This document shows, piece by piece, positions 8,973-63,315 of a stretch of DNA of 64,000 nucleotides. The notes under the pieces were generated by a model. It was not told the DNA's origin, did no database searches, and saw nothing but the letters and a program-made list of their open reading frames with translations. The number at the start of each line of letters is the position of its first letter. Positions within the stretch are counted from its first letter, which is position 1. The position numbers were made by a program, and so were the translations under genes. The stretch lies in assembly GCA_963768775.1 (NCBI GenBank), contig CAVYIY010000005.1:159028-223027 (forward strand), in the 5' to 3' direction. This DNA is from Methanomassiliicoccaceae archaeon (GTDB lineage Archaea > Thermoplasmatota > Thermoplasmata > Methanomassiliicoccales > UBA472).

Positions 8973-9081
8973 AGTTATCCTCTTGGCAAAAATGGAGCAT
9001 GGTATAAATATGTTTCCGACAGCGGGTTATGTTCTGTCTTGGGGGAAAGGCTTATGAGTGTGCTTTTCATTTGCCTCACAT

Positions 9082-14929: not shown

Positions 14930-15885
14930 ATCGAAACACCCCCATTTCCCCGAAACTTCTAATAAGCAATTGTGAGTGTGAGTCGGAAGACCGAATATAA
15001 TGGCTCGTTTCCTTTTTGTCAATTAATTAGCCAAGAAAGGAAATCTTCATCGCTCAATTGATGTCTGGATTAAGTGATTTAACTATTTGTGCTGCAGCTG
15101 GGACACCTCGCTCAAACGCTAACAAGCAATTGATAGTCAACAGGAGAGGTATCGGTAATTCTCGAAAAAATATTTCGACTTATCGATCGCTTTCATATAC
15201 TGGCATGAAGCGGTACAATTCTTCCCAATTCCACCTCATTGGTCGATAGGAATTGAACATTCATGTCGTATATTCCACATATTTAGAAGGATTAGCCGTT
15301 ATTTCGCCATGAATAACCTGGTCATTTATGAAGTGTTGGAATGTTGGGGATTGTAAGTGCGCAATATTTGCAAGCACCCATTAGTTCTTATATTTGAGAC
15401 GAACAGAATAATGATGGCGAGCCGGGAATCCTCCTTTGCTTATCGTGGTGTGAGAGTTGGAATCAGACAGCCATTATTATGCCCCGGTCCGCCATCCTTC
15501 ATTATTGAACGCACTATGGCCGTTTAAACTGGAACCGGTTAGAAGATGGAAGAAGGTAAGGATAGAAGAAAGAAGATAGGAAGAGGTTTGGAGACATGGC
15601 GAGCATAGCGTTAAACGATTCAGCCAGCAGGTGTTATCGTCGCATTTTTCGGTTGTCAAATCTGTTTGCACCAGGAAATCAAGGTGCGCAAACATATCAC
15701 ACGCCCATCCTAGCCAGTCTACCTTATCCAGCTCCATAACGCACATCCTACTATCCCCGGTCCGTCATCCCTTCCAATCCGTTTCTCGATAATCTCCATA
15801 AGTTACCGCCATTAAGTCGATACCAGAGATTAAGAGTAAAGTTGTCAATGGTGTGAAGCTTGGTTCATTTTATTGAGGGAATGAT

Positions 15886-16977
15886 ATGATCTCTGAACAA
15901 AAGGGTCCGATGAGCGATGATATTGCCGCTAAAAAGAAGTATAACGATGTAATAAGAATCCCATTCGAACTCAATGAAAGTAGCATCCTGGCGATATGCG
16001 GGATGCTCTGCCTTCTGATCTTCTTCTTGGACGTCAGCTTAAGGATCTCGTTCCTCGTCAGCATTCTGTATGTTATTCCAGTGCTGATTTGTATCTGGTC
16101 CCCGAAAAGACGGACCATATATATTGTAGCAGGAGTATCCTCGTTCCTTACAATAATTGCAATACCCTTCAAACCACCTGGAGACATTCTAATCCCTCTT
16201 TTCAATCGGCCACTCTCATTGCTCACCCTTTGGACCGCGGTGATTCTAATTGACCGATTCAACTCCATCCGAAAGAGGTTCGAAGAGAAGTTAAAGAAGT
16301 CCAATGATGACCTCCAGCAATTCGCTTACATCGCCTCGCACGACCTTCAGGAGCCTCTGCGCACGGTCGTCAATTACCTGGCCCTCCTCCAAAGAAAGAA
16401 TATGGATAAGCTGGATCCTAAATCCCAGGAATACATCAATTTCGCCATGGATGGCGGAGAAAGGATGCGCCAATTGATCGATGACCTATTGGAGTATTCA
16501 AGAGTCGATAGCCAGGGGAAAGAGTTCACTCCAGTGAATATGCAAGACGTAATTGATGAAACTCTTGCAATACTTAAATCGCGCATAGAAGAAAGCAATG
16601 TGCAAGTGATCACCGGTCCACTCCCTGTAATCTCTGGAGATGAAACTCAAATGATAAGGGTGATGCAGAATCTGATAGGGAACGCAATCAAATTCCACGG
16701 CCCAGAGCCTCCGAAGATATGCGTTTCAGCGTCGGAAGGCAGGAATGAATGGACCTTCGCGGTCAAGGACAACGGAATCGGTCTGGACATGCAGTATTCA
16801 GACAAGATATTCCAGATGTTCCAACGTTTGCATAATAAGGAAGAATATCCAGGGACAGGTATCGGCCTTGCTGTCACGAAGAAGATCGTTGAACGTCATC
16901 GAGGAAGGATCTGGGTCGAATCGGAAGAAGGCAAGGGAGCGACATTCTTCTTCACTATTCCGATCGGCAATAATTGA
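15886..16977 (+). CDS. Membrane sensor histidine kinase
   Basis: The N-terminal part is hydrophobic. The HisKA H-box is FAYIASHDLQEPLRTV. The HATPase_c region contains NLIGNAIKF and GTGIGLAVTKKIVERHRGRIWVESEEGKGATFFFTIP. Confidence 0.85.
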   Translation: MISEQKGPMSDDIAAKKKYNDVIRIPFELNESSILAICGMLCLLIFFLDVSLRISFLVSILYVIPVLICIWSPKRRTIYIVAGVSSFLTIIAIPFKPPGDILIPLFNRPLSLLTLWTAVILIDRFNSIRKRFEEKLKKSNDDLQQFAYIASHDLQEPLRTVVNYLALLQRKNMDKLDPKSQEYINFAMDGGERMRQLIDDLLEYSRVDSQGKEFTPVNMQDVIDETLAILKSRIEESNVQVITGPLPVISGDETQMIRVMQNLIGNAIKFHGPEPPKICVSASEGRNEWTFAVKDNGIGLDMQYSDKIFQMFQRLHNKEEYPGTGIGLAVTKKIVERHRGRIWVESEEGKGATFFFTIPIGNN

Positions 16978-17415
16978 TAAAGGGAAAGGTGCCAGTTCGG
17001 CTCATCTCTTAGAGACCAAACCTGCCGTCTCGCAACGATATAACGATGATTTCCTCTGATTTCTAAATGTAAATATGAAAAAACAGATTCCGGACACTTC
17101 GGACGAATCGGACCGATTCCCTAGACAGAGATCTAGAATCAAAAAGAATTGAAAGAATTACAACCCTCGTTAATTAGATTGGGCAGGGTAATGATTCTTA
17201 TGAAATGAATGAAACGTGCTCTCGGGCTCAAGAAGAAGAGCTAAAGGGAAACACTATCTGATATTGACCTTCGGGTCTTGTTGCATTTAAAGAAAGTTGA
17301 GTAAGGGGTTTGGGGGGACAATTGGGCATTTCCTGCAATTCATCCAGTATTCTTTCATATCTCAAATTTGAGTGGTGAAGGTAGTTTCATATTTCAGCTC
17401 GGGTTTGCCGTCTTA

Positions 17416-17907
17416 ATGAGGAAAGCGAGCTTCAGCGAGTTCTTCCCTGACCGCTATGGATCAAAGCTCGAGGCGGCGAAGGACATTCCTTGCATCTTCG
17501 AGGTGGTCATGAAAGCTGTCCAGGAGACGATGGGCCTCAGACGCTCGGGTCTGGAGCTTGGCCTTATCGAACTGGAGAGCAGTCATGGATATTTCATCGG
17601 TTGCCTCCACCCCTTTGGCACGAACCTGATAGTAGTGAACAAGTTGCCTCTTAGGCGAGTGAAGGATTCATCGCCCCAGATCTGCAAATCATATTTATTC
17701 CTTGTTCTTCTGCACGAGTACATGCATACGTTTGGCATCTGGGATGAGAAGGAAATACGCGAGGGGGCCCTGGCGATGATTAGACAGCTTTTCGGGGATG
17801 ATCATCCGGCCACGAAACTGGCAGAGGGCATCGAGCAGTTGCTCCCGTTCGTCATCTATCCGACGCAGATGTCGTTGCCCAAGGGAACGAAGATGGAGTC
17901 GGTCTAG
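17416..17907 (+). CDS. Hypothetical protein with an HExxH motif, possibly a zinc metallopeptidase
   Basis: The ATG is at 17416. The LLHEYMHTFG (HExxH) motif is the only functional clue. Confidence 0.4.
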   Translation: MRKASFSEFFPDRYGSKLEAAKDIPCIFEVVMKAVQETMGLRRSGLELGLIELESSHGYFIGCLHPFGTNLIVVNKLPLRRVKDSSPQICKSYLFLVLLHEYMHTFGIWDEKEIREGALAMIRQLFGDDHPATKLAEGIEQLLPFVIYPTQMSLPKGTKMESV

Positions 17908-17953
17908 GGATTCTGCTCGAGATCTCGTGATGCCAGCTTGAGCGATTGTTGGA

Positions 17954-19165
17954 TCAGGTCGCTGGCATGACCAAGTCCTTCGACAATGGCGTATACCGAT
18001 TCGCGATAAGGTAGAGGGGGACCGAGGCTGCAGCCAGGATTGCTCCAATATACATCGCTGCCTGAAGCGATGAGCTATCGATCACCGGCCCAAGGACCAG
18101 TGTCATTCCGCCCGCGGCGAGGTTGAGCAGCGAGCTCAGCAGAGCCAAAGAGGACGCCCTGATTCGGGAAGGTATCAAGGAGTTCCTCCAGAGCATCACC
18201 GTCGGCATTGCCAGTCCGCTGGTGAAGCCGCTGATGGCGAACAGTATTCCGGACAGCAGGTAGCTTTGGACTAGGGGCTGCAGGATGTAGGAGGCGAAGA
18301 GCAGGATCCCGGCAAAAGCCAGCATCCGGTGCCTTCCCAGCCGGTCGGCCATCTTGATCGAGAGCAGGTTCCCTGCCACCATGGAGACCATCAGCACGGA
18401 GAAATAGATGCCCAGGAACTCCTTGCCCATGCCAGCTAGCACCAGATACGGCTGGTAGACGATGAAGTAGACGATGACGGCGCTGTTGCGGAGCATCTCA
18501 GCGTAGGTAAGGTCCCTCAGGGCGGCGCTGTGGCGGAAGTGCGACAGGCTCTCCTTCAGCAGTCCGGCGAAGCGGGAGCTTCTCTCGCCGAAGTTCTCCT
18601 TGAAGAAGAAGAGGGCGAAGAGCGTGGCAACGGCGGTGAGCGCCGCCCCCACCAGCATGGGGAGGTTCAGGGCGATGGCCGCGAAGACGGAACCGACCAC
18701 GCCTCCGACAATCCCGAGCAAGTTGCTGACGCTGCTGTTAACCGGGAACGTCCGCTTCGCCTCGCTCGCCTTGCCCTCCGCTCGCAGCGAATCGATGAGC
18801 CAGGCCTCGACCGAGCCGCTGATCAGGGCGGCAGAGCCGGCCAGGATTATCTCGGCCAGGAGGAAGCGAAGGATGGAGGATGACAATCCATACACCGTGA
18901 AGCCGAAAACATTAATGGCTCCGCCGATCAGCAAAGCCTGCTTCCGGCCATGCCTGTCCGCGAAGTCGCCGGCGAAGAGGTTGAGGATCGCTAGCGCCAC
19001 GAAGTTGCCCACGAAGATCAGGCTGATGTCGGTGTAGTCCAGCCCGTTTGCCGTCAGATAGATGATGTAGTAGCTCTGGAAGACGAAGAAGCCCGAGTTG
19101 AGGATCGCCATGTAGGCGATGTACTCCTTGGAGGTCCTCGAAAGGGGCATTACACGTCCTGGCAA
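17954..19165 (-). CDS. MFS transporter
   Basis: 403-aa ORF with about 12 hydrophobic segments. FAGDFADRHGRKQ is an MFS loop 2-3 motif. Confidence 0.75.
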   Translation of the reverse strand: MPGRVMPLSRTSKEYIAYMAILNSGFFVFQSYYIIYLTANGLDYTDISLIFVGNFVALAILNLFAGDFADRHGRKQALLIGGAINVFGFTVYGLSSSILRFLLAEIILAGSAALISGSVEAWLIDSLRAEGKASEAKRTFPVNSSVSNLLGIVGGVVGSVFAAIALNLPMLVGAALTAVATLFALFFFKENFGERSSRFAGLLKESLSHFRHSAALRDLTYAEMLRNSAVIVYFIVYQPYLVLAGMGKEFLGIYFSVLMVSMVAGNLLSIKMADRLGRHRMLAFAGILLFASYILQPLVQSYLLSGILFAISGFTSGLAMPTVMLWRNSLIPSRIRASSLALLSSLLNLAAGGMTLVLGPVIDSSSLQAAMYIGAILAAASVPLYLIANRYTPLSKDLVMPAT

Positions 19166-19913: not shown

Positions 19914-21524
19914 CTAGGCCTGGTACTTGCGCCTGATGGCGGCTCGGACCAGCCCGTAGTGCAGCGGGCTCGGCTTCTGCGGTCTCGACTTGAACTCGGG
20001 GTGGAACTGCGCGGCCATGAAGAAGGGATGCCCTTCCAGCTCCCCGATCTCCATCTTGATCCCGTCCGGGGAGCGTGCCGAGAACTTCCAACCGACCGAT
20101 TCCAGCTTCTCGATGAACTTCGGGTTCACCTCGTAACGGTGGCGATGCCGTTCCATGATCAGGGTCTTGCCGCCGTACAGCTCATGCGCCATCGTGCCCT
20201 CGGTGACCACCGACGGCTGGACTCCAAGGCGCATGGTCCCGCCCTTCCTCTTCACATCGCGCTGCTCCGGCAGGATGTCGATCACCGGGTATTGAGTCTC
20301 CGGGTTGATCTCCGTGCTGTTGGCGCCCTCCATGCCCAGCAAGGCGCGGGCGATGTCGATGGTGGCGATCTGGAAGCCGAGGCAGCAGCCGAGATACGGA
20401 ATGCGGTTCTCCCGGGCGAACCGGGAGGTCATGATCTTGCCCTCTATCCCCCGAGAACCGAAGCCTCCGGGTATGAGGATGCCGTCGATCTTGGCCAGGT
20501 CGGGGGTTATGCCCTTCTCCTGCACCACCTCGCTGTCCACGAACACCATCTCCACCTTGGTCTCGAGCTCCGCCCCAGCGTGGTGGAAAGCCTCCAAATG
20601 GCTTATGTAGGCGTCGGCCAGGTGGGTGTACTTGCCCACGCAGGCGATGCGCACCGTCCTGGTGGGATTGGAGACCCGGTCGAGGAACCTCTTCCATTCT
20701 GTGAGGTCCTGCATCTTCGACTCCAGCCTGAATCGCTTCAGGATGTAGTCGGTCAGGCCCTGCTCCTCCAAGATGATCGGGACTTCATAGATGGACCTGG
20801 CATCCGGGGCGGAAACCACCGCCTCCAGCGGCACGTCGCAGAACAGCGATATCTTGCGCTTGATGCTGTATTCCAATGGCTCCGTAGCTCGGGCCACGAT
20901 AGCATCTGGCTGAATGCCCAATGAGCGCAGCTCCTTCACCGAGTGCTGCGTCGGCTTGGTCTTCTGCTCTCCCACGGTCCCCAATATGGGGACCAAAGTG
21001 GTGTGGACGAACATGCAGTTCTCGCCCTTCCCCAGCTCGGTGTTCATCTGCCTCACCGCTTCCAGGAAGGGCATCGACTCGATGTCACCCACCGTTCCCC
21101 CGAGCTCGACGATGCAAACGTCAGCCCCGGTCGCTTCGGCGACGGTGCGGATCTGGCATTTTATCTCATTGGTAATGTGGGGAATGATCTGTACGGTCTT
21201 GCCCAGATACTCGCCCATCCTCTCCTTCTCGATGACCGTCCGGTATATCTTGCCGGTGGTGATGTTGTGATCGCTGGTGAGATTGATGTCTAGGAATCGT
21301 TCGTAATTGCCCAGGTCGAGGTCCACCTCGCCCCCGTCATCCAGGACGAATACCTCTCCATGCTCGAATGGGTTCATGGTGCCCGCGTCGATGTTCAGGT
21401 ACGGATCCACCTTAATCGCAGTTACCTTCAAACCTCGCGATATGAGTAGCCGCCCTATCGAGGAGGAGGTTATTCCTTTGCCCAAGCCAGATATTACGCC
21501 ACCCGTGACAAAAATATATTTCAT
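19914..21524 (-). CDS. pyrG: CTP synthase
   Basis: The ATG is at 21524 ([24 protein letters not shown]). The glutaminase domain contains [12 protein letters not shown] and LGCCLGFQ. Confidence 0.95.
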
Positions 21525-21571
21525 CGTTTCCACGGGATTGCCAAATCCGTTTGTGCATATTTCAGTCTTTG

Positions 21572-21580
21572 CACGATGGC
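21572..21580. repeat. Left copy of the 9-bp target-site duplication CACGATGGC
   Basis: Identical 9-mer at 28695-28703. Each copy directly abuts a terminal inverted repeat. Confidence 0.7.
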
Positions 21581-21584
21581 GGCT

Positions 21585-21637
21585 TTGCACTCAAAGTCGT
21601 TCTTGCACCTAAAATCATAAGTTTGCACCTAAAGTCT
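21585..21637 (+). repeat. Three phased direct repeats of TTGCAC(C)TAAA(A/G)TC at the left transposon end
   Basis: The copies start at 21585 (TTGCACTCAAAGTCG), 21603 (TTGCACCTAAAATCA) and 21623 (TTGCACCTAAAGTCT). Spacing is 18 and 20 nt. Confidence 0.7.
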
Positions 21638-21640
21638 TGC

Positions 21641-21655
21641 TTAAGTCAGACTTAA
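21641..21655. promoter_or_regulatory. Perfect palindrome TTAAGTC-A-GACTTAA, a putative operator upstream of the wHTH gene
   Basis: 7-bp arms around one central base, about 50 nt upstream of the ATG at 21707. The half-site resembles the AAGTC end of the iteron. Confidence 0.4.
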
Positions 21656-21706
21656 GACAGCAAGATTCAAAAGGGGATGAATACATGACTATTATGGTTG
21701 CAGCCT

Positions 21707-23143
21707 ATGAAGTCGAGTTCGAGTATTACTGCGAATGTTATTTGGCCATCAGCTGGCTTTTCGACTATCAAGAAGATAACCATCGCGCTCGTTAGCGGAA
21801 GGACGGTTCGTTCAGACCTCGTTCATAAGGCGAGTGTTAGCAAAAGTGCAATGAATAATGCTTTACCTATAATGCGAAATCTGCAAATCGTTCAATCAGA
21901 AGGGTACAGAAAAACCTCCCTCAAGTTGACGGAGGATGGGGAAGAACTTGCAACAGCATTGAAGAACAACAACGAAGATGGATTGAATCTCATTGGAGAA
22001 AGATTGCTCAATAATTCCCCAGTCCTGAAATCGGCTAAATCAAGACTCGTTCAGAATCCGCAAATCAATTTGGAAATCCTTGGTCACCAATTGGCCGAGG
22101 AATTTGGAATGAGATGGGACCACTCAGGTACTTATAGAAATGTAGGCCAGCACTCAAAAAGTATTCTTATGAATTTTGGGGCAATCCCACGAACTGGTAT
22201 GAGATCTTCCAATGGAGGGTATATTGTGCCCAATAGGACCACATTGGTCCCATCGACATCAGCTGAAATGATTTTTGATTTCATTAAGAAACTTGACCGA
22301 GAACAGGCAAAGCCAATTGTGGGGAGTCTGGAACCAAGTTCAACAAAGACATATCGGTTAGGGCGATTCAAATCACTTATCGACCTCGACCTTGTCGAAT
22401 CACCATTGGGGGACAAATGTTTTCGCCTAACTGAAAGTGGATTGAGATTGAAGCGAGCAATCCAAAACGGGGAGGAATCACGAGTATTTGCTGAAATTAT
22501 CTTTGAATTTCAGCCCTCCAAGGAGGTAATTCTTATTCTTTCAAATGCTAAACAGACATTCAATTCTACTGAAATAGGCAACAATATCGCTGAATATAAT
22601 GGTGCGAATTGGGGAAAGGAGACAAGCAGACAAGAAGGATTGCGATTCCTTTCTTGGCTTAGAACAGCTGGAATTGCTCAACAAAATCATGAACCAGGCA
22701 AGTATCGAATAACGCTTGCCCCTGTTCTCTTTTCTGTTTCATATGTGTCAAAAGTTGTTCCTCCATTAGAAGTAAAGAAGATCGAAATGCCTGAACCTCC
22801 ATTGCAACTAATTGTGAAAGACCATTTCGTTATGGACGAAAGGGAAATGATTAAAGAATTGGATAGATTCCTCATAAAAGCAGGGGAAATACTCCATACG
22901 AACCCAAATGAAAGTGAAATTGGAGATTATTTCGCCGAAACAGGTAGAATATTAAATGCGATTGTTGAAATTGCTGAGAAAGAAAAGAAACAAGAATGGC
23001 TTGCGATTCATCTTCGAGACCTCACCGAGATCGTTTTAAGATTGAATAATTTGGAAATGCTCGAAGAAATGGTAACTTTCGCGTATCTATGGAAGAAGGT
23101 TTTAAAAGAGAATGATGATTATTATTCGAGAACACCGGGATAG
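21707..23143 (+). CDS. Hypothetical protein with several winged-helix-like DNA-binding modules
   Basis: ORF 21698..23143 with the first ATG at 21707. The segments RSDLVHKASVSKSAMNNALPIMRNLQIVQSEGYRKTSLKLTEDGEELA, RLGRFKSLIDLDLVESPLGDKCFRLTESGLRL and GLRFLSWLRTAGIAQQNHEPGKYRIT look wHTH-like. No family is recognised. Confidence 0.55.
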   Translation: MKSSSSITANVIWPSAGFSTIKKITIALVSGRTVRSDLVHKASVSKSAMNNALPIMRNLQIVQSEGYRKTSLKLTEDGEELATALKNNNEDGLNLIGERLLNNSPVLKSAKSRLVQNPQINLEILGHQLAEEFGMRWDHSGTYRNVGQHSKSILMNFGAIPRTGMRSSNGGYIVPNRTTLVPSTSAEMIFDFIKKLDREQAKPIVGSLEPSSTKTYRLGRFKSLIDLDLVESPLGDKCFRLTESGLRLKRAIQNGEESRVFAEIIFEFQPSKEVILILSNAKQTFNSTEIGNNIAEYNGANWGKETSRQEGLRFLSWLRTAGIAQQNHEPGKYRITLAPVLFSVSYVSKVVPPLEVKKIEMPEPPLQLIVKDHFVMDEREMIKELDRFLIKAGEILHTNPNESEIGDYFAETGRILNAIVEIAEKEKKQEWLAIHLRDLTEIVLRLNNLEMLEEMVTFAYLWKKVLKENDDYYSRTPG

Positions 23144-23208
23144 CGAAGATCGGTATCGCAGCCCTCTCATCGGTAGGCAGTTCGGGGGTTCAAATCCCCC
23201 TCCCGGTA
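23134..23208 (+). tRNA. tRNA-like sequence (central CAT, so Met/Ile2-type?) with a defective anticodon stem; a possible tRNA pseudogene
   Basis: The acceptor ACCGGGA/TCCCGGT, D arm GCGA-AGATCGGTA-TCGC and T arm GGGGG-TTCAAAT-CCCCC all pair perfectly. The anticodon arm GCCCTCTCATCGGTAGGC forms only 3 clean base pairs. Confidence 0.45.
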
Positions 23209-23576
23209 CCTCTTTCCTTCTTTATCCCAGTGTCTCGAACGTCCTTGGAGCTGCCACTTCGAAGTTGCAGCCACGAAGTCGAAAGCTCCCGGACTGTATA
23301 CACTCAGGAACTAATGTGTCTTAAAGGGTTTGCGCTCATTCCTTCTATTGATTCTTAGTCGAAGCTGATATGAATGAATGTTGATGGTGCAATCGATCAT
23401 TATGATGAATTCTACCTTCAAATAAAGGATTATTATGATCTATTGAAACAAAACTGTATTACAATGGCATTACACGAATCAAATCTAAATCACAGTTGTC
23501 GATTAGAAACACGATGAATCGTTCGAACGTCCTTTTAGAGTGTTAACGATAAATAGAAAATCGAGAAGTATGAAAG

Positions 23577-23591
23577 TTGTACCTAAAGTCG
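23577..23591 (+). repeat. Extra iteron copy TTGTACCTAAAGTCG upstream of the small zinc-ribbon gene
   Basis: Matches the TTGCACCTAAAGTC consensus at 13 of 14 positions and lies 62 nt upstream of the ATG at 23653. Confidence 0.4.
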
Positions 23592-23652
23592 GCTGTGGGT
23601 AGTTTCACTGTAATTGGCGATTTGAATAGCATCCTATGACCTTCAGCAGATT

Positions 23653-23802
23653 ATGTGGTTGAAACCAAAGAAGCGAGAAGTTCTAGTCCTGAGAATGGTT
23701 GGCAAATGCCCAGAATGCGGAGCGGCTTTGTGGTCTGGATCGCAGAAATGCGGAAGATGTGGAAAATTGATCGAAAATAGATTTCATTTGGCTGGCAAAT
23801 AA
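23653..23802 (+). CDS. Small zinc-ribbon protein (49 aa)
   Basis: Hand translation gives MWLKPKKREVLVLRMVGKCPECGAALWSGSQKCGRCGKLIENRFHLAGK, with the CPxCG...CGRCG motif. It is below the 60-aa cutoff of the ORF track. Confidence 0.4.
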   Translation: MWLKPKKREVLVLRMVGKCPECGAALWSGSQKCGRCGKLIENRFHLAGK

Positions 23803-24779
23803 GTCTCTATCGTTGGATTGGGGCGAATGCCCTTTCGAATCCTTTCAACCATCGAGTTCAACTCATCCCAGTATGAACAAACACTCATGATCTCTCTGAT
23901 TGCCAATTCATCAATCTCTCCTTTCTCGGTTGAAGGTAGTTGGATTTTGAAGTCCTTTAACTTCTCGTTGAAGCACTTACGGCCATACGAATACCTCCAC
24001 GTTTCACGATTCAGCATATATTGAATGAAGATGAGAGTGGATAGCATAATTGTCTTCTTGGGCAAACAGACGGCGACGTCATCCTTGGCCGCAAAGGTAT
24101 ATGGATGGTATTTCGTGAGAAGAGGCCACGATCCATTGTAGGCGATAGTCAGGCATTGAGAATAGGTCTTATTCTTGGGCACCTCAACGAAGCCAACTAT
24201 CCCATTGTTAATATTTCCGCAAGAAACTAAAGGCGTCTTACCTGGATGCAGCTCAGACGCATTATGGTAATCGCCCGAGTTCAAGTCGAAAATGGATTTT
24301 AGTGAGTGAAATTTGAATCGGCTTATTGATGGAGTAGCAGAGTTATTCTTCCTCTCTGGCAAAATATTGTGAATGTCAGTCAGCCTTATTTTTGAGAATT
24401 GCTCGATTGGAAGCTGAATCGCCTTCAGTCTTGTAGGGGTGAGTTTTCTTCCAAAAGAAAAGCGCCATCTTGAATTAGTAATAATACTGGCAATGAAAAA
24501 TAGCTTTTCAAGTTCGATCTTTTGCTTTGGAATAAGAACGGTGATGTCATCTGGCACAGTCGAAAAATCGACGGTCTGAACGAAGGCATATCCAGCAACT
24601 CTTTCGACCGTTATTGCTGGTGCTTTAAAGCTCGGAGTAGCCTTTACAAAGCCAGTAACTCCATTGTTTTCGGTCGTTGCAGAAATTAGAGGAGTAGGAC
24701 CAGCTTCAAAATCCTCGATATAGCCGCCTTTTCCCTTCTTTGGATAAAAAAGTTCATCAATCGTCGCCATGAAATTCAT
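23784..24779 (-). CDS. Restriction-modification specificity subunit with two TRD-like repeats (BcgI-B-like)
   Basis: 331 aa with an internal duplication: ...PLISATTENNGVTGFV...DDITVLIPKQKIELEKLFFIASIITNSRWRFSFGRKLTPTRLKAIQLPI is repeated as ...PLVSCGNINNGIVGFV...DDVAVCLPKKTIMLSTLIFIQYMLNRETWRYSYGRKCFNEKLKDFKIQLP. The start overlaps the upstream methylase gene by 23 nt. Confidence 0.65.
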   Translation of the reverse strand: MNFMATIDELFYPKKGKGGYIEDFEAGPTPLISATTENNGVTGFVKATPSFKAPAITVERVAGYAFVQTVDFSTVPDDITVLIPKQKIELEKLFFIASIITNSRWRFSFGRKLTPTRLKAIQLPIEQFSKIRLTDIHNILPERKNNSATPSISRFKFHSLKSIFDLNSGDYHNASELHPGKTPLVSCGNINNGIVGFVEVPKNKTYSQCLTIAYNGSWPLLTKYHPYTFAAKDDVAVCLPKKTIMLSTLIFIQYMLNRETWRYSYGRKCFNEKLKDFKIQLPSTEKGEIDELAIREIMSVCSYWDELNSMVERIRKGIRPNPTIETYLPAK

Positions 24780-26613
24780 CTTCCTTTGCGCCTCTGATTA
24801 GGAACGCGACGTTGTCCCTGATAAGACTCTCTGCATCGAGCCTGATCTTCTCGGATGTAACAGGCTCATCGTCGAGATAGGCTTCAGGGCACAATTCAAA
24901 CAGTTCATCCTCGTCATTTATCTCGATTGCCTTCTGCATTTGAGGTATATTTGGAACGCTAATGCTCGGGTCTACCAGATATGATGCCAATATAGGTTTG
25001 AGCGTCTCCAAATCATTTGGTTCGCTTGGATTGGGGAGTCTCTTGCCTTTCTTCAGTTTATACCCATCATGGGCCGCTCGGAGCCATAACACCTTTTGAT
25101 TGCCTTGTGGCACACCTTTTCTGATGAATACTCCTACAGTTATGACCCCCACTCCAGGTTGAAATAATTCTTGCGGAAAAGAAATCACGCATAATAGGCT
25201 ATTCTCTTTTACCAGCCTTTTCCTCCAGCTAAGGTAGCCTCCTTTTTTAATCATGCATGAATAGGGCAGGACTGAAAACAGTAACCCCTCATCTTGCATT
25301 TGTTTCAAAGCCTGCTCTACGAAGAGAAATTCCTTCTTGTCGGTCTTCTTCTTTGGAAATGGCGGATTCATTAAGACCCTGGTAATTGGAGGAACCCGCT
25401 TTTCGGTTTCTTCATTAAGGTATTCAGCTCCGACTACTCCGTTTTTTGAAGACAGATTGAGATATTTGCGGAAACAATTTCCTTCAATGATGTTGTTTTT
25501 GCCATCACCCCTGAAGATCATGTTGACTAACGCAAGAGCCACAATTGTATCCTGTTCTTCGATTCCGTACAAACCGACCTTTCTGAACTCTTGGAAATCT
25601 CGATCATTTGCTTTCTTCTTGACCTCGTCGAAAGCGGCTACCAGGAAGCCTCCAGTTCCACAGGTTGGGTCAAGAACGAGGTCATTGGCGTTGATGTTTG
25701 TGACCTCTGCGGCGAGACGAGTTACGTGGCGAGGCGTAAGGACAATCCCTATCTCCTTTGCCCCATTGCCATATTTCAGGAAGACCTCGTAAAATTTGCC
25801 GAGAACATCCTTTCCCGAACGCATTGCCGAATGGATGTTTAGTCCCAGCAGTTCCTGAGTGGTCTTAACAATTGCCGATTTTAGCTTTATGTGATTATCC
25901 TCACTTGATGGAAGGTCGATATGGATAAAGGGGGAGAATTCGGATTTATTCTCAGCTTTTAGCACAAGGTCTACTCGTTGATTAATTTGGCTAACGAGTT
26001 CTGGTGGACTTAGATTCAAATCGACATCGGGCTTCCGCGTCATGGCTAGAAGGATCGCAGAAATGAACTTCGCCCTTGCATCTTTATGAATGGCGTTTTC
26101 ATGAAGAATTCCATTGATCTCCTCAGCCGTTCTGAGAAAATCTTCTTCAGAAATCTCAATGTCCTTTATGTTGGCATCGTCGTTTTTTAGAACCTGCTCA
26201 ATCTCGGTAGCAGAGAGTAAGGCGGTGACTTCTGAGTTATTCTCAGTAATTATTTCCCAGGATCCATTCACCAAATACCTGCTCGTTGCAATATATCCTT
26301 CTTCATCATTGCCAGCAATGCCAGTGCAAAAATGTGCTTTTATGAATTTGCTATTATTGATGTCATCGCAATATCCTATGGCTTCCTTGATTGCTTTTTC
26401 GAGGAGAACGCGCTTACTTTTAGCTTCTATGACATAGAATTGGTTGTTTGAAATCTCAACGATGTTTTCAGGGACTCCGCCTTTGAGTTGCTCTTTCAGA
26501 TACCTGTTATTATTGCATTCGTTTTGTGTGAATATCTTCCCCTTCCAACCCTTTTTCGACCTCAGTTCCTTAAGGATATGAACGTAAGCATGAACTTCCG
26601 TGACCGAATTCAT
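24757..26613 (-). CDS. N6-adenine DNA methyltransferase fused to an N-terminal PD-(D/E)xK-like nuclease domain (Type IIB/IIG-like RM subunit, BcgI-A-like)
   Basis: 618 aa. MTase motif I is VLDPTCGTGGFLVAAF and motif IV is LMNPPFP. The N-terminal roughly 130 aa contain VPENIVEIS...FYVIEAKSK (E...ExK). No separate restriction endonuclease or HsdR gene is nearby. Confidence 0.75.
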   Translation of the reverse strand: MNSVTEVHAYVHILKELRSKKGWKGKIFTQNECNNNRYLKEQLKGGVPENIVEISNNQFYVIEAKSKRVLLEKAIKEAIGYCDDINNSKFIKAHFCTGIAGNDEEGYIATSRYLVNGSWEIITENNSEVTALLSATEIEQVLKNDDANIKDIEISEEDFLRTAEEINGILHENAIHKDARAKFISAILLAMTRKPDVDLNLSPPELVSQINQRVDLVLKAENKSEFSPFIHIDLPSSEDNHIKLKSAIVKTTQELLGLNIHSAMRSGKDVLGKFYEVFLKYGNGAKEIGIVLTPRHVTRLAAEVTNINANDLVLDPTCGTGGFLVAAFDEVKKKANDRDFQEFRKVGLYGIEEQDTIVALALVNMIFRGDGKNNIIEGNCFRKYLNLSSKNGVVGAEYLNEETEKRVPPITRVLMNPPFPKKKTDKKEFLFVEQALKQMQDEGLLFSVLPYSCMIKKGGYLSWRKRLVKENSLLCVISFPQELFQPGVGVITVGVFIRKGVPQGNQKVLWLRAAHDGYKLKKGKRLPNPSEPNDLETLKPILASYLVDPSISVPNIPQMQKAIEINDEDELFELCPEAYLDDEPVTSEKIRLDAESLIRDNVAFLIRGAKEDEFHGDD

Positions 26614-26765
26614 TTCTTATTCCCACCCTTCTTGATCCAATCACTTAATGCCTCTTCGCCCGCTTCCGACAAGTGGCCTTTCTTCATTCCCAGTCTATGT
26701 GACACTGCATCTCTGAACCCTTCATCCACATCATCGCTGACGACTAGGAGAATTTTTTTAGTCAA
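26610..26765 (-). CDS. Small ribbon-helix-helix-like protein, a putative R-M controller
   Basis: Hand translation gives (L)TKKILLVVSDDVDEGFRDAVSHRLGMKKGHLSEAGEEALSDWIKKGGNKK. The TGA overlaps the methylase ATG (ATGA). There is no ATG, so a TTG start at 26765 is assumed. Confidence 0.4.
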   Translation of the reverse strand: MTKKILLVVSDDVDEGFRDAVSHRLGMKKGHLSEAGEEALSDWIKKGGNKK

Positions 26766-26847
26766 GTAGACCAAATATATATGTGCATATCCAATTATAT
26801 AACTATCTAGTTATGATGATAATGTGATATATGAATATCATCTTACT

Positions 26848-27012
26848 TTAATCAGTTATTGATGACTTGGTTTTGCGTCTTGGACTATCCCAATACGGGC
26901 TTTTACATTTAGGGCAGACGCGCGGCTTAGGCGGTTCGGCAACGATCTGTTTCGGAGCCCATTTGTGCTTGCATCTAAGGCACTCGAATCCAGCCACCAT
27001 GATTCTAGGCAT
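26848..27012 (-). CDS. Small zinc-ribbon protein (54 aa)
   Basis: Hand translation gives MPRIMVAGFECLRCKHKWAPKQIVAEPPKPRVCPKCKSPYWDSPRRKTKSSITD (CxxC...CxxC). It is more plausible than the antisense track ORF 26867..27067. Confidence 0.5.
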   Translation of the reverse strand: MPRIMVAGFECLRCKHKWAPKQIVAEPPKPRVCPKCKSPYWDSPRRKTKSSITD

Positions 27013-27122
27013 GATGAATGAAGGTATGTACTCTATGATATATTATCTTTCGGTTGTCATTCGGTAGCCTGGTAGCAACCTTAATATATACCTAATGAGT
27101 ATATACCTATTAGGTAAGAAAT

Positions 27123-28373
27123 ATGGCACACCTTGAAAAGACAACAAGAGAAGATCGCGCCAAGCTTATCGCGCGTAAAGCAAACTCGATTAATGAAGTT
27201 AAACCAGGCATATTCGCAGTCAAATCGCAAAGCGGAATAGGCGTATATCGAGTCGAGAATAATCGGGGCTGGAAATGCAATTGCCCAGATCATGTTACCA
27301 GGGGAGTCGATTGCAAGCATATCCTTGCGACTAGATATTACCTTGAAGCGCAGCACGAAACGCCGGAAGGTGTCGTTACGGAGAAGATTAGGCTGACCTA
27401 CAATCAGGCTTGGTCAGCTTATAATTCAGCTCAGGAGGAAGAGGTAAGGCTCTTCGACAAGCTCCTGAGCGAATTGGTTGAGGGGATACCGGAGCCAGAA
27501 CAGGTGATGGGCCGTCCTCGATTGCCGCTCAATGAGCAGCTTTTCTGCTCAATCCAGAAAGTCTATTCCCAATTGTCCAGTCGTCGCGCCCATAGCCTCT
27601 TCAAGAACGCCAATGAGAGAGGGCAGATCGGCCATGCGCCCCACTTCAACGCGCCATCCAAGCTGTTCAATCGGCCTGAGATCACGCCAATCCTCCATGA
27701 GCTGATAAGGCTCTCCGCCATGCCAGTTGCCGACATCGAGACGGACTTCGCAATCGATTCGACCGGATTTAGGACAACGACGTTCAATGCATACCACGGA
27801 GAGAAGCACAACGTCAAGAGAAAGCAGAACTGGCTCAAGGCGCATATGTGCTGTGGAGTGAAGACCAACATTGTTACGAGCATTGAGGTAACAAATGAGT
27901 TTGGCGCGGATTCCGTCCAGTTCCAGCCCCTCCTTGCGAAGACGGCTGAGTCGTTCAAGATAAACGAGGTAAGCGCGGATATGGCCTATTCCTCACGCGC
28001 CAATTTGCAGGCCGTTGGCGACCTTGGAGGAGTCGCTTTCATCCCTTTCAAGAGCAACGTGAACGGTAAACCCACTGGTTCGCCTTTGTGGAAGAAGATG
28101 TACCACTTCTTCCAGTACCACAGGGAAGAGTTCGAGGCGCACTACCATAAGCGGAGCAACGTGGAATCCACAAACGCGGCCATTAAGCGGAAGTTTGGGG
28201 AGACGCTGAAATCGAAGAACCTGATTGCTCAAACTAACGAACTATTGGCTAAGATCGTGGCCTATAACCTCACGGTGATAATCCACGAGATGTATGAGAA
28301 TGGGGTGGAGCCGGACTTCCTGCACATACATCCTAATCCGGGCAACGACGCCTTAAGCGCGGATGCATCATAA
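27123..28373 (+). CDS. IS4-family DDE transposase with an N-terminal SWIM zinc finger
   Basis: 416 aa. The SWIM motif CxCx(n)CxH is WKCNCPDHVTRGVDCKH. The DDE context is FAIDSTGF and VSADMAYSS. There is an exact IS4 YREK signature Y-(2)-R-(3)-E-(6)-K in HYHKRSNVESTNAAIKRKFGE. Confidence 0.8.
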   Translation: MAHLEKTTREDRAKLIARKANSINEVKPGIFAVKSQSGIGVYRVENNRGWKCNCPDHVTRGVDCKHILATRYYLEAQHETPEGVVTEKIRLTYNQAWSAYNSAQEEEVRLFDKLLSELVEGIPEPEQVMGRPRLPLNEQLFCSIQKVYSQLSSRRAHSLFKNANERGQIGHAPHFNAPSKLFNRPEITPILHELIRLSAMPVADIETDFAIDSTGFRTTTFNAYHGEKHNVKRKQNWLKAHMCCGVKTNIVTSIEVTNEFGADSVQFQPLLAKTAESFKINEVSADMAYSSRANLQAVGDLGGVAFIPFKSNVNGKPTGSPLWKKMYHFFQYHREEFEAHYHKRSNVESTNAAIKRKFGETLKSKNLIAQTNELLAKIVAYNLTVIIHEMYENGVEPDFLHIHPNPGNDALSADAS

Positions 28374-28394
28374 ATAGGACGAAATAACACAACA

Positions 28395-28556
28395 TTACTT
28401 GGACATCGCGTCTTTCCATTGTTCCATCCATTTCCTATATGCCCATCTATGCAATTTGCATGCATTACGTTTTGGAATGCTGTGCGCATGAGGACATACT
28501 TCGTCGTCGGTGATCTCCAACTCTCCTTTCTTTAAAGATTCCACGAACCATGACAT
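28395..28556 (-). CDS. Small Cys/His-containing protein (53 aa)
   Basis: Hand translation gives MSWFVESLKKGELEITDDEVCPHAHSIPKRNACKLHRWAYRKWMEQWKDAMSK. It lies inside the transposon and is below the ORF-track cutoff. Confidence 0.35.
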   Translation of the reverse strand: MSWFVESLKKGELEITDDEVCPHAHSIPKRNACKLHRWAYRKWMEQWKDAMSK

Positions 28557-28630
28557 CTTTTTTCGCCTTCTTTGTTCAATAGAAGCTTTTGAGGCTTACA
28601 ACAACCTTCCGGGGTGATTCTCAATATCGG

Positions 28631-28665
28631 TTGCACCTAATGTCCATATTCCGCACCTAATGTCC
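28631..28665 (+). repeat. Two phased direct repeats of (TT/CC)GCACCTAATGTCC at the right transposon end
   Basis: The copies are at 28631-28645 and 28651-28665, an exact 13-nt repeat with a 20-nt period. IR-R (28676-28694) carries a related copy in the opposite orientation. Confidence 0.65.
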
Positions 28666-28694
28666 TCGTTCATGGTCACTTTAGATGCAAAGCC

Positions 28695-28703
28695 CACGAT
28701 GGC
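28695..28703. repeat. Right copy of the 9-bp target-site duplication CACGATGGC
   Basis: Identical to 21572-21580. Confidence 0.7.
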
Positions 28704-28897: not shown

Positions 28898-30366
<1,469 letters not shown>

Positions 30367-30637: not shown

Positions 30638-31086
30638 CCGTTTCGAGGTGCTAGCTTAGGTCCCACGCGTTTCCGCGCGGCACCTATTATCTCTCTAATC
30701 CTTCGTGGTATAAGAGGGTTTGCATGAACGAGCCAGAGGAACGGGGCCTCGGGGCATTGGTTTGCGTTGCGAAGGACAGATGCGGTCAATGGATTTCACG
30801 CCGATTTCCGTCAAATCCGAACAGCGATTCTGTTCCGGAAAACGATTCTAAGATTTGATGCATCCTGCGAGTCTTTTCTTCCTACATTCATTTCTCCTTA
30901 TCACACGCTGTTGGCGAGTCATGGCCAAGATCATGATGCGCGATTGGGCATTCGATCTCTTTCATCGAAGCGATTCGATTAGCTCGTCATGTCGATTGAC
31001 ATTGATCTGGGCGACGTGCGCGGTGCGAATGGAAGGTATTGTCCCGAGAAAAGCTTTAAGTGAGATATCTGCTTTCTCAGGCCGAA

Positions 31087-31191
31087 GCGGAGGTGGCCCA
31101 GCCAGGCAAGGCGTTGGATTGCTATCTCGCCCTAGCGGGGCAAACATCCAATGTCCGTGAGGACTCGGGGGTTCAAATCCCCCCCTTCGCG
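31087..31191 (+). tRNA. tRNA-Ser (anticodon GCU) with a 21-nt intron at the canonical 37/38 position
   Basis: The acceptor is GCGGAGG/CCTTCGC. The anticodon stem is TTGGA/TCCAA and the loop is TT-GCT-A. The intron spans 31125-31145. There is a 15-nt variable arm (class II) and the T arm is GGGGG-TTCAAAT-CCCCC. Confidence 0.85.
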
Positions 31192-31195
31192 CTCC
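31184..31195 (+). repeat. Left copy of the 12-bp direct repeat CCTTCGCGCTCC (tRNA-Ser 3' end; putative attL)
   Basis: Exact copy at 33048-33059. Confidence 0.5.
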
Positions 31196-31550
31196 TATTT
31201 CCTATGGAAGCTGGCTCTTTTGGGGTTTTTGGGTGGAAAAGGGCCATTTTTTACGATTGTTCGTCTGTACCAGATAGGGATTTTCTCTGCGATTTCGAAA
31301 TTCGAAGGGAAAGGGTTTGCCGAGGTGGAGGGAGAGCGGAGACGATTAGATAATTGATGCAAATGTTGTTTGAGGCAGAGTGTCAATTAAGAAGAAATAA
31401 TGAGCCCCGCTAGACCTCCCCTATTTAGGCTGCATCTTCGGCGCCCGCTCCAGCAATATCCATCAATTGAGCGATATTACCATCTTCATATAGGGAATAG
31501 TTTCTTAAATCTGCATATCAATCCATTAGTGTTAAGAGAGAGGTGGAGTT

Positions 31551-31982
31551 ATGGTCAAATTAGCTGAATATTCTCATGACTTCAAAGTTAAAAGGAAGGA
31601 AGAAGTATTCGATGGAATCATTCGCTGGCTGAGTACAGAGGGAGCAGAAATCGAGAACTCAAACAAGCCATTACAAATCACTGCGATGCATGGCTCCAGA
31701 AAGACCGTCTCTGTATGGAAGAGGAATGCCAGGAAGAAGCTTGATTTCAGTCTCACCGACACAGCAGAGGGAACTCATGTGCAGGTCGAGGCGCATACTG
31801 GTTCGATGATGTATCTCGATGACGTTGCAACCTGGAAGAAGCAGATATATGTCAACTATGGTTTGCTGTTGGAAGAGATATGGGCAAGTGTGGATGGCGT
31901 TCCGTTTACATATCCTGGGGAAGAAACGACAACTCAACCACCTGAAACGGAGAAGAAATCGAAATGGAAGCTCTTCAAATAA
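31551..31982 (+). CDS. Hypothetical protein (143 aa)
   Basis: Intact ORF with a GGTGGAG 5 nt upstream, in the low-GC insert. No homology is recognised. Confidence 0.45.
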   Translation: MVKLAEYSHDFKVKRKEEVFDGIIRWLSTEGAEIENSNKPLQITAMHGSRKTVSVWKRNARKKLDFSLTDTAEGTHVQVEAHTGSMMYLDDVATWKKQIYVNYGLLLEEIWASVDGVPFTYPGEETTTQPPETEKKSKWKLFK

Positions 31983-32000
31983 ACAACCAGGTGTAATTTA

Positions 32001-32255
32001 ATGGACAGAGAAGAACTGCTTAGGGCCAAAGCCGAGATGTCAAAGAGAGACCGAACGATTGGCAGAGCGAGCATGAGACTGGGAGCGATTATTGCGGTGG
32101 TATCTTTCGCTCTGGTTGTCCTCATTGTCTCGATTAATGGTCCGCTCACAGACAACATTGGCTCAATAATTGCCTATGTCTTGGCATTTGGTGTGGGACT
32201 TGGAGTTCTTATGTTGCTATATGGTCTACTGCAATATCGGTCCAGCAAAGAATGA
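32001..32255 (+). CDS. Hypothetical small membrane protein (84 aa)
   Basis: Two predicted TM helices. It follows the previous ORF by 18 nt. Confidence 0.4.
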   Translation: MDREELLRAKAEMSKRDRTIGRASMRLGAIIAVVSFALVVLIVSINGPLTDNIGSIIAYVLAFGVGLGVLMLLYGLLQYRSSKE

Positions 32256-32317
32256 ACGCATGACCCATTTCTGCCTACACATGGTCTTACTATCGAAGGT
32301 CAGAAGTGTTAGTCATT

Positions 32318-32491
32318 CTATTCAGATTCGATTGTCACCTTGATTTTCAACGGGGTCTTCCCGGCAAATGCTGCCTTTTGAACGTACAGCGTACCAATGA
32401 CTGGGGTCGATGTCGGGTCTTTCACATCTTCCATGAATCTGAACGTGTTCTTAGTGGCCTTTTCAAAAGTCATAGTCAATTCTGTTTTCAT
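32318..32491 (-). CDS. Hypothetical small protein (57 aa)
   Basis: Hand translation gives MKTELTMTFEKATKNTFRFMEDVKDPTSTPVIGTLYVQKAAFAGKTPLKIKVTIESE. A GGAGG lies 8 nt upstream of the ATG. It is preferred over the antisense track ORF 32306..32542. Confidence 0.45.
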   Translation of the reverse strand: MKTELTMTFEKATKNTFRFMEDVKDPTSTPVIGTLYVQKAAFAGKTPLKIKVTIESE

Positions 32492-33047
32492 GCGAATGCC
32501 TCCGAGATAGTATGTGACCCTCCATTCTTACTATTTTCCTAATTGCGAGGTGGTGGAGCCTAGAGAACCCATCCGAGCCATCCGAGCCGTCCAGAACTCG
32601 CTTACTTTCTTAAACATCATGAGACATCGAGGTTCAAATTACACCCCCCGCACCTTAATCAGAGGCAGTATTTGTTTCTCAAAAATGTCACCGCCAAGCG
32701 TTAGCATGATTCAACTTTTTATTAATCCTTGTCCTGCCCCCCCAGTGTTCTGGCTCGGGGGATCTATTTGAGGTGGGTACGCTTTTTAGAATAGTCTCAT
32801 TAGTTTTAACTCCCTGGTATCACCATCCTTCACGGATAACTATGAGCACAATGAAAAAGAAAAAAAAGGGAGCAGATGATCCGCCCGTGAACAACAATCG
32901 GTCAGATCATAAGAGTTCGAGAACCCCATCCAACATTACAGGCGCGGACAACAAATCAAACCAGAAAAAAGGATCGAAGGGCAAGAATTAATAAACCATT
33001 GAAAGAAACTGGAAGGCTTAATGGCCCAGCGAAATGAGACGGACTCT

Positions 33048-60743: not shown

Positions 60744-60969
60744 GTGAGTGATTATTAGACGGCATATAATCTGACGAGCCGGCTCGTCGCTACATCAGGT
60801 GAGGCGATGGGATTATTCCATGCCTCTTGCCTATATGATCGATAATTATGAATGAACGCCAGTTAGCTGATATCCGCCAGGGGTCCGAATCGGTCACTCG
60901 ATGATCATTGCGGAATCCTCGCATAGTGTACTACACGAGTTGAGCTCAATGTCGGAAGGTTGAAAGGCA

Positions 60970-61425: not shown

Positions 61426-61470
61426 AAGAGTCGGATCGAAACAATCAATTTATTAATTTGCACGCGATTA

Positions 61471-62065: not shown

Positions 62066-62112
62066 CACTGTTGAAAATCGTCCTTGCTGATAAGCGACGT
62101 CGACGATCGCCG

Positions 62113-62859: not shown

Positions 62860-62879
62860 TTCCTCGAGCGCTGCTGCTT

Positions 62880-63311: not shown

Positions 63312-63315
63312 TGAA

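Follow-up and report, generated by a model that had tools for sequence, protein, structure and literature searches.

The 64-kb stretch of archaeal DNA analysed here (the window; contig CAVYIY010000005.1 of a Methanomassiliicoccaceae archaeon, with all coordinates given as window positions) contains a restriction-modification (R-M) locus. This locus is, with good probability, a BcgI-like (Type IIB-type) R-M system that forms the cargo of an IS5-family unit transposon. Judged by sequence, its two genes are best read as a self-contained system in which one protein would both cut and methylate DNA and a second would read the target. Loci of relatives are labelled L001, L002 and so on.

The RM subunit is encoded at 24757-26613 on the minus strand. 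It is a protein of 618 aa with an ATG start, and the list of open reading frames (ORFs), Pfam, PADLOC, a family alignment and a structural model together describe it as a predicted fusion of nuclease, connector and methyltransferase. The specificity (S) subunit follows at 23784-24779 on the same strand (331 aa, ATG start), and its ORF overlaps the 3' end of the RM ORF by 23 nt. Upstream of RM lie two small genes on the minus strand, a ribbon-helix-helix (RHH) gene at 26610-26765 and a zinc-ribbon gene at 26848-27012. An initial annotation, made from the letters alone, had proposed a BcgI-like two-gene R-M system at this place; all of its testable elements (domains, motif, pairing with S, absence of HsdR) held.

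The operon is part of an element of 7,114 bp (21581-28694), which also contains a divergent transposase gene and an extra segment of 2 kb, and which is inserted between pyrG and the 3' side of the 16S rRNA gene. The element ends in terminal inverted repeats (TIRs). The left, or S-side, TIR is GGCTTTGCACTCAAAGT, 17 bp long, at 21581-21597 (plus strand), and pairs with 28678-28694. There, inverted-repeat and pattern searches find the right, or transposase-side, TIR, GGCTTTGCATCTAAAGT (minus strand), which is an imperfect inverse of the left one. Two identical copies of the 9-mer CACGATGGC abut these repeats, at 21572-21580 on the left and 28695-28703 on the right, and represent a target-site duplication. 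A search of the 64 kb with the end pattern finds the two terminal copies and one degenerate copy only.

The transposase (27123-28373, plus strand) is an IS5-family DDE enzyme of 416 aa, has a SWIM-like zinc finger at its N-terminus and is transcribed divergently from the RM operon. It matches Pfam DDE_Tnp_1 with an E-value of 2.7e-20 and SWIM weakly. The NCBIfam model IS5_2 (NF033579) gives 123.9 bits, below its cut-off of 140. Residues D212, D286 and E348, together with Y341-R344-E348-K355, are invariant in 11 transposase homologues. The protein is thus a divergent IS5 branch with an extra SWIM-like N-terminus.

Because the TIRs and the 9-bp duplication enclose the whole unit, the R-M system is passenger DNA of a unit transposon. 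This is a stronger statement than that of the initial annotation, which had placed the system on a transposon. A different explanation would be that the transposase belongs to an unrelated insertion sequence (IS) that landed beside the R-M operon, so that the R-M genes are not in a mobile unit. R-M genes often adjoin IS elements (PMC2853133), and a contig from another sequencing run, L007, could be taken in the same sense. Its sequence matches window 21249-27118 at 100% identity and runs across the left junction, and it ends 5 nt before the transposase ATG, a typical assembly break at a repeated IS. Such a break fits a transposase region that is repeated in that sample. Against an unrelated IS, the transposase alone has no flanking inverted repeats in nine loci, TIRs with abutting 9-bp duplications enclose transposase and R-M genes in the window and in five loci from different phyla, and the TIR-bounded segment coincides with a low-GC island (about 21.6-28.7 kb, 40-49% GC against about 60% in the genome). 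This explanation is scarcely credible, and the R-M genes are taken here as cargo.

The first 130 residues of the RM protein (26224-26613, minus strand) form a predicted PD-(D/E)xK-type nuclease domain, as judged from AlphaFold2, invariance and Foldseek. Its candidate catalytic residues are E6 or E32, E49, E63 and K65. The initial annotation had pointed to a PD-(D/E)xK-like pattern, VPENIVEIS...VIEAKSK, which corresponds to P48-E49...E63-A64-K65. It had also placed a region of about 130 aa before the methyltransferase motifs. That length suits the nuclease domain itself; the full-length model adds a helical connector of about 135 aa, so that the total preceding the methyltransferase core is about 265 aa.

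Among 80 relatives from species-representative genomes (33-82% identity), E6, P48, E63 and K65 never vary, and residue 49 is E in 76 of 77 aligned relatives and D in the other. The N-terminal 130 residues are conserved to the same degree as the methyltransferase. They have no match in Pfam, NCBIfam or the sequences of the PDB; a profile of the region, run against PDB sequences, matched S1 proteins only, at chance level.

Structure prediction had been suggested as a check that could reveal the lack of a nuclease fold. Instead, the AlphaFold2 model of residues 1-140 is confident (pLDDT 90.9) and runs as helix, short helices, strand 50-55, strand 58-65, helix 68-86 and strand 92-102. P48-E49 opens the first of these strands and E63-A-K65 closes the second, which in the model is the PD-(D/E)xK arrangement, an alpha-beta-beta-alpha-beta core with the PE...ExK residues on what count as its 2nd and 3rd strands. 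Foldseek E-values against the PDB are weak throughout for this model; the matches of better probability include a bunyavirus cap-snatching endonuclease (0.96) and the N-terminus of the BsaXI RM chain (0.82). With the full-length model (pLDDT 83.5), Type I M subunits align over the C-terminal 460-530 columns only, and the RM fusions BsaXI (Type IIB), BpuSI and DrdV over 611-690 columns. A full-length structural alignment was obtained with RM-fusion enzymes only.

A matching residue pattern can be found in characterized enzymes. In BcgI, the substitution E53A abolishes cleavage (PMC3592470), and the motif is PE-X12-ExK (PMC9159934, citing Kong 1998); the PE-X13-ExK spacer of the RM protein is one residue longer. 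The catalytic residues of BsaXI are E73, D90, E105 and K107 (PMC11997821), with spacers of X16 and X14. The RM protein reads E32-X16-E49-X13-E63-x-K65.

The methyltransferase domain occupies residues 268-526 (25036-25812, minus strand). It is of the gamma-class N6-adenine type, as had been read from the motifs DPTCGTGGFL and NPPF, and its assignment comes from Pfam N6_Mtase, which covers the same residues (E 8.6e-33), and from Type I M subunits in the PDB (E 1e-15 to 8e-24). The two motifs, at residues 315-324 and 416-419, are both invariant in the alignment of relatives. Pfam finds neither an HsdM_N match nor a helicase domain in the protein, and the hsdM equivalog of NCBIfam scores 45.7 bits against a cut-off of 242.75. 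PADLOC labels the RM protein REase_MTase_IIG (3e-42, 2.3e-41) and the S protein Specificity_II (3e-23).

The S protein was expected to be internally duplicated, and its halves are indeed 32% identical over 124 aa (E 2e-17). Pfam gives two Methylase_S matches (E 3.6e-13), and Pfam, PADLOC and the half-against-half alignment agree on two target-recognition domains (TRDs) produced by the duplication. A convergent zinc-ribbon ORF of 49 aa (23653-23802, plus strand) overlaps the 3' end of the S gene; no convincing relative of it was found in other loci.

A survey of about 87 distinct related loci shows how the two genes vary. In most, RM is followed by a full S gene (about 290-380 aa) or a half-size one (about 150-215 aa), or carries a fused S domain. 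The RM-S fusions measure about 790-870 aa and have no separate S gene; they occur in L014-L016, L018, L020, L023, L033, L067 and others. Half-size, single-domain S proteins are encoded in L012, L028-L030, L036, L041 and L060-L063.

No separate endonuclease accompanies the pair, in line with the initial annotation. By Pfam, the largest other ORFs of the window belong to housekeeping families or have no match, and ten large ORFs neighbouring RM in related loci are unrelated to restriction; HsdR is absent from both sets. The only HsdR near the family in the surveyed loci is that of L011, where it is part of a complete, oppositely oriented Type I operon. A search using this HsdR as query found no partner for the RM/S pair. 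With no HsdR in the window or beside the relatives, the pair appears to be self-contained.

These results bear on what the two proteins do. One possibility is an orphan, Type I-like M+S methyltransferase, in which the N-terminal domain is non-catalytic or DNA-binding and the complex only methylates. Such a reading would suit the public annotation of relatives (HsdM or N-6 DNA methylase), the resemblance of the methyltransferase domain to Type I M subunits above all, and a nuclease domain that Pfam does not see. It is nevertheless very unlikely. P48, E49, E63 and K65 are invariant or nearly so in about 80 relatives down to 33% identity and lie in a confidently predicted nuclease-type fold, HsdM_N is not matched, and in related loci the RM/S pair never sits within an HsdR operon.

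The enzyme could also be Type IIG-like, with S as a separate subunit, and would then cut on one side only or at variable distance. A two-TRD S subunit paired with an RM chain is the architecture of BcgI and BsaXI (PMC3592470, PMC11997821), and with one nuclease per RM and two RM per S, symmetric cutting on two sides would be expected. The Type IIG-like alternative, though it fits the name of the best PADLOC profile, the full-length alignments with the one-side cutters BpuSI and DrdV, and the relatives with half-size S or RM-S fusions, is therefore improbable, if less so than the orphan methyltransferase. The half-size and fused forms imply that quaternary arrangement varies within the family.

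On the BcgI-like reading, analogy with the BcgI and BsaXI enzymes suggests how the system may work. A pair of RM chains would assemble on one S subunit, and the complex would read an asymmetric bipartite site. Using S-adenosylmethionine (SAM), it would methylate one adenine per half-site. At unmodified sites it would cut both strands at fixed distances outside the site, in a reaction needing Mg2+ and not ATP. The zinc-ribbon and RHH genes open the operon, the latter translationally coupled to RM, and their products may exert a transcriptional control that delays or limits expression of the nuclease after entry into a new genome, as C proteins do.

Homologous elements can be found in both archaea and bacteria. 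Transposase homologues (40-63% identical) lie directly upstream of RM in 14 of the 76 loci with enough flank, usually in divergent orientation and at a nearly constant distance. Hosts in which transposase and RM occur together include Methanothrix, Methanosarcinales, Micrarchaeota, Woesearchaeota, Acidobacteriota, Planctomycetes, Alphaproteobacteria, Dehalococcoidia and Desulfobacteria.

Seven loci (L028, L029, L039, L041, L052, L067 and L084) have elements of 4.2-5.8 kb with ends starting GGCTTTGCA; one end of L084 starts AGCTTTGCA instead. All seven, from Methanothrix, Methanosarcinales, Acidobacteriota, Planctomycetes, Alphaproteobacteria and Dehalococcoidia, enclose transposase, RM and S, and four of them a zinc ribbon. 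Duplications of 9 bp flank five of the seven, the one in L084 with one mismatch. With the window, 9-bp duplications mark six independent insertions. Transposition of homologous elements has taken place in several phyla of archaea and bacteria.

Three observations concern individual loci or other vehicles. The element at L039 3543-9150 has good terminal repeats, and its flanks (cccccgcaagg / ccttgcggg) are not a direct duplication, one being the reverse complement of the other; this would be expected from recombination between two copies or from insertion into a palindrome. In L084 (5950-10054; Methanothrix sp., OY762912.1), RM is apparently split by an insertion of about 1.2 kb with two ORFs of 159 and 207 aa that by eye resemble halves of an IS630-type transposase, after which a C-terminal RM remnant and S follow. 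A different transposase or integrase, of rve or DDE_Tnp_IS240 type, holds the same divergent position in L001 (6603-7733), L004 (6487-7674) and L011 (4456-5745), and mobile elements of more than one kind may have acquired the R-M cassette.

The window's element is longer than these relatives. Pattern search finds a degenerate copy of its S-side end (...TTGTACCTAAAGTC) in the interior, at 23573-23590 (plus strand). The copy is 194 nt past the stop codon of S, at the place of the end in the smaller elements. The extra 2 kb beyond it suggests that the ancestral element was shorter, and the copy is possibly the relic end of that element. This segment contains an additional cargo ORF at 21698-23143 (plus strand; 481 aa, TTG start) with a weak winged-helix match (Pfam HTH_45, E 3.8e-4, below cut-off). 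No relative of this ORF was found in the other elements. ARAGORN reports a 'tRNA-???' with a 4-base anticodon at 23134-23210, overlapping the 3' end of the ORF, which Rfam does not confirm.

Five partial end copies (TTGCACCTAA[A/T][A/G]TC) also lie inside the element, all on the plus strand. Two are by the left end (21603-21616, 21623-21636), one is between S and the 481-aa ORF (23577-23590) and two are by the right end (28631-28644, 28654-28667), the last two in the orientation opposite to the terminal repeat. Binding sites for the transposase are one possible explanation, relics of earlier ends another. Between the transposase stop codon and the right end is an ORF of 53 aa (28395-28556, minus strand), for which no convincing relative was found in other loci. 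Just outside the left end, positions 21571-21580 (cTTTGCACgatggc) resemble the start of the terminal repeat.

The small genes upstream of RM were examined as families. The RHH ORF has no ATG, and its candidate starts are TTG 26774 (54 aa) and TTG 26765 (51 aa). It ends with a TGA at 26610 that overlaps the RM start codon in a shared ATGA. Alone, it matches Pfam RHH_6 with an E-value of 0.0026 (18.8 bits, cut-off 27), and a word-indexed protein search with the peptide returned nothing, the query itself included. An exhaustive HMMER search of 1.84 billion representatives found 77 homologues (E<=1e-3), 35-59% identical over residues ~5-50. Their alignment has the pattern of RHH proteins, strand-helix-G-x-K-K-G-N-helix. 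RHH_6 is matched by 16 of 31 aligned members (best 2.5e-7), and the family profile matches the 51-residue PDB chain 2k6l (E 8e-4), an RHH repressor from Xanthomonas.

Given the homologues and the matches to RHH_6 and 2k6l, the RHH gene is real, which bears out the initial annotation of a 51-codon, RHH-like ORF with a TTG start and an ATGA overlap. Most homologues start M-G-K-I-N, which favours TTG 26765 as the probable start and hence the 51-aa product. The gene is lineage-specific and not a conserved part of the RM family.

The zinc-ribbon gene encodes 54 aa with the pattern CxxC...CPKCKSPYW. Its matches to Pfam Zn_ribbon_8 are weak. Homologues lie directly upstream of RM in 16 of 87 loci, in several phyla and with or without the transposase, and the gene is the family's recurrent upstream partner. 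In the closest relatives other small ORFs occupy the slot that the RHH gene has here, in L008 and L010 with an identical 4-nt overlap and in L011 with the ORF ending at the RM start codon. The L011 ORF was considered as an RHH relative and rejected (BLASTP E 0.39, no match to the RHH family profile). Likewise, the label "AbrB-like" for the upstream ORFs of L002 and L010 has no Pfam support; these are unrelated small ORFs in the same slot.

Between the zinc-ribbon and RHH genes, at 26794-26814 (minus strand), is an AT-rich, promoter-like stretch, TTATATAA, read from the sequence. A palindrome, ATAACTA-GA-TAGTTAT, overlaps it and is a candidate operator. A sigma-70-type scan also flags 26794-26822.

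Transcriptional control is the likeliest role of the two small proteins, and a controller-like role may be proposed for both. They might instead be unconnected with regulation of the R-M genes and act as antitoxin-like proteins, in transposon maintenance or as accessory subunits. RHH proteins are common antitoxins. Moreover, the RHH family is missing from the other RM loci, no fetched locus pairs it with an R-M system, and the sole context retrieved for a member, a contig of 1.5 kb, is uninformative. Several features of the locus speak for regulators all the same: the RHH stop overlaps the RM start, close relatives keep the 4-nt overlap (L008, L010) or end at the RM start (L011) with other small ORFs, the zinc-ribbon gene stays beside RM in loci without transposase, and the palindrome overlaps the promoter-like box upstream. 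A non-regulatory role is thus unlikely, with more in its favour than either alternative for the enzyme itself.

As a regulatory arrangement, the slot resembles that of C proteins, since a small gene of DNA-binding type lies directly upstream of the nuclease gene and is translationally coupled to it. C proteins are of the Xre type, with a helix-turn-helix and a C-box operator, whereas the genes here encode an RHH protein and a zinc ribbon, the latter being the form in most relatives. The upstream genes are thus outside the C-protein class, and by analogy the arrangement may work like C-protein control. That an RHH protein, a zinc ribbon or another small protein can fill the slot suggests that the control of restriction after transfer was solved several times independently.

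Some results weigh against the overall interpretation. By sequence, the methyltransferase domain is nearer to Type I HsdM than to BsaXI. PADLOC profiles are the evidence for homology to BcgI, and their matches leave out RM residues 1-103. Type IIB is defined by cutting on both sides of the site, which for this system is a prediction. Between transposase and RM, pairwise identities show a weak, non-significant correlation (Spearman 0.22, p 0.11), so that cargo and transposase may have been re-assorted. The RHH family profile finds an RHH gene in none of the other RM loci (about 87), and on L007, whose sequence is identical, the gene caller called neither small ORF. Finally, no empty site was found when metagenome contigs were searched with the reconstructed 20-nt junction. 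The sole match, L095 2945-2964 (GGGGCTTTGCACGATGGCCAGAAGAG), is on an unrelated contig, is probably due to chance and was rejected as an empty site. Together with the end-like target beside the left TIR, it could hint at insertion next to end-like sequences, and this too is probably chance.

Comparison with known systems places the locus more closely. BcgI of Bacillus coagulans, a Type IIB enzyme of composition A2B, shares the gene order, RM then S, and the absence of a translocase. Its A-type chain combines an N-terminal nuclease motif, PE...ExK, with a gamma-class N6-methyladenine (m6A) methyltransferase, and its B-type chain resembles a Type I S subunit. The sizes, which the initial annotation had likened to BcgI A and B along with the gene order, also agree (618 and 331 aa here; about 182 kDa for A2B, PMC3592470). 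The locus differs in its X13 spacer, against X12 in BcgI, which is compared here by published motif and profiles. It also differs in its archaeal host, in the zinc-ribbon and RHH genes upstream and in its position inside a DDE transposon.

BsaXI is the only Type IIB (RM)2S enzyme of solved structure (cryo-EM; 8w0p, 8w2p, 8w2q; PMC11997821). The BsaXI RM chain can be aligned with the model over 611-642 columns, and its E...D...ExK residues are spaced almost as they are here. It is larger, with an RM chain of 914-916 residues that includes a 'knob' and a C-terminal 'paddle' and with an S subunit of 476 aa, and has no HMMER-detectable sequence similarity to the RM protein. The overall TM-scores are low (0.41-0.45) because the domains are differently oriented. 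The Type I core (HsdM2-HsdS; StySJI M, 2okc; EcoKI) is the closest match in methyltransferase sequence and shares the TRD-CR-TRD-CR logic of S. It differs from the present system, which has an extra N-terminal nuclease domain, a shorter S (331 aa), no HsdR and no HsdM_N.

Elements of the IS903 group of the IS5 family have inverted repeats of about 18 bp that start GGCTTTG, and generate 9-bp duplications. The window's element is like them in its DDE_Tnp_1 fold with Y-x2-R-x3-E-x6-K, its GGCTTTG ends and its 9-bp duplication. It is unlike them in the 416-aa transposase with a SWIM-like zinc finger, which scores under the NCBIfam IS5 cut-off. In addition, the element carries 3-6 kb of passenger genes, and an IS carries none.

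Transposon-like R-M units were described by Furuta, Abe and Kobayashi in 2010 (PMC2853133). One of them, in Neisseria gonorrhoeae, is a decayed BcgI-like unit whose inverted repeats measure 26 bp and whose duplication measures 8 bp. As in the window, R-M genes lie inside imperfect TIRs with a short target duplication, and a transposase-like gene lies within. In the Neisseria unit RM is truncated and the transposase is probably inactive (PMC2853133), whereas the element described here has an intact IS5-type YREK transposase, conserved with its cargo across two domains, and a 9-bp duplication. A limited literature search found no description of a family that joins this transposase with an R-M system.

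The R-M system itself is an ordinary BcgI-like member, and it is the transposon vehicle and the regulators without a helix-turn-helix that stand out. More tentatively, at somewhat short of an even chance, the window copy belongs to an undescribed, cross-domain family of autonomous IS5/IS903-like unit transposons whose standard cargo is a complete BcgI-like R-M system with its own zinc-ribbon regulator.

The RM family is large. More than 2,500 matches to the RM protein occur among 5.8 billion proteins. The best 120, from both archaea and bacteria, are about 620 aa long and 56-82% identical, and cover 87-100% of the query (98-100% for nearly all). At least 500 loci are found among species-representative genomes. 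Of the best 120, nearly all those with a source name are annotated as Type I M subunit or N-6 DNA methylase. A search of plasmids gave distant relatives only (26-28% identity), annotated as N-6 DNA methylase, one of them on a Lactiplantibacillus plasmid with a half-size S gene.

Some further features lie in the surroundings of the element. A complete archaeal 16S rRNA gene is present at 28898-30366 (minus strand), with the transposon end about 200 nt beyond its 3' end; 23S and 5S genes were not found in the window. Rfam, but not ARAGORN, reports a tRNA match of 105 nt at 31087-31191 (plus strand), which is probably an archaeal tRNA with an intron. Other stretches of 42-50% GC, at 9000-10000, 15000-18000, 31000-33000 and 60000-64000, stand out from the background of about 60% and may be further acquired islands.

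The results matter at two levels. First, a large family labelled "Type I M subunit" or "N-6 DNA methylase" carries an unannotated, strictly conserved predicted nuclease domain, and sequence and model indicate that its genes are probably restriction enzymes and not plain methylases. If so, methylome and defence inventories of archaea and uncultured bacteria would need rereading. Since BcgI-type enzymes are useful reagents, the family is also a source of many candidate specificities, among them the naturally occurring half-S and RM-S fusion forms. Second, the cross-domain transposon is most worth following, above the nuclease domain of the mis-named family and the regulators that lack a helix-turn-helix. 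If the proposed family is real, a self-sufficient restriction system with its own DDE transposase would be moving between archaea and bacteria, and Archaea would have a cargo-carrying DDE transposon, although passenger-carrying DNA transposons went undetected there in a 2019 survey (PMC6563490). The R-M genes may serve the element as an addiction module or as an entry-exclusion device. With inverted repeats and 9-bp duplications at six independent insertions, the locus provides direct sequence evidence that a complete R-M system travels as the passenger of its own DDE transposase and that elements of this kind occur in both domains, which bears on the debate over R-M systems as selfish elements and on the spread of defence genes.

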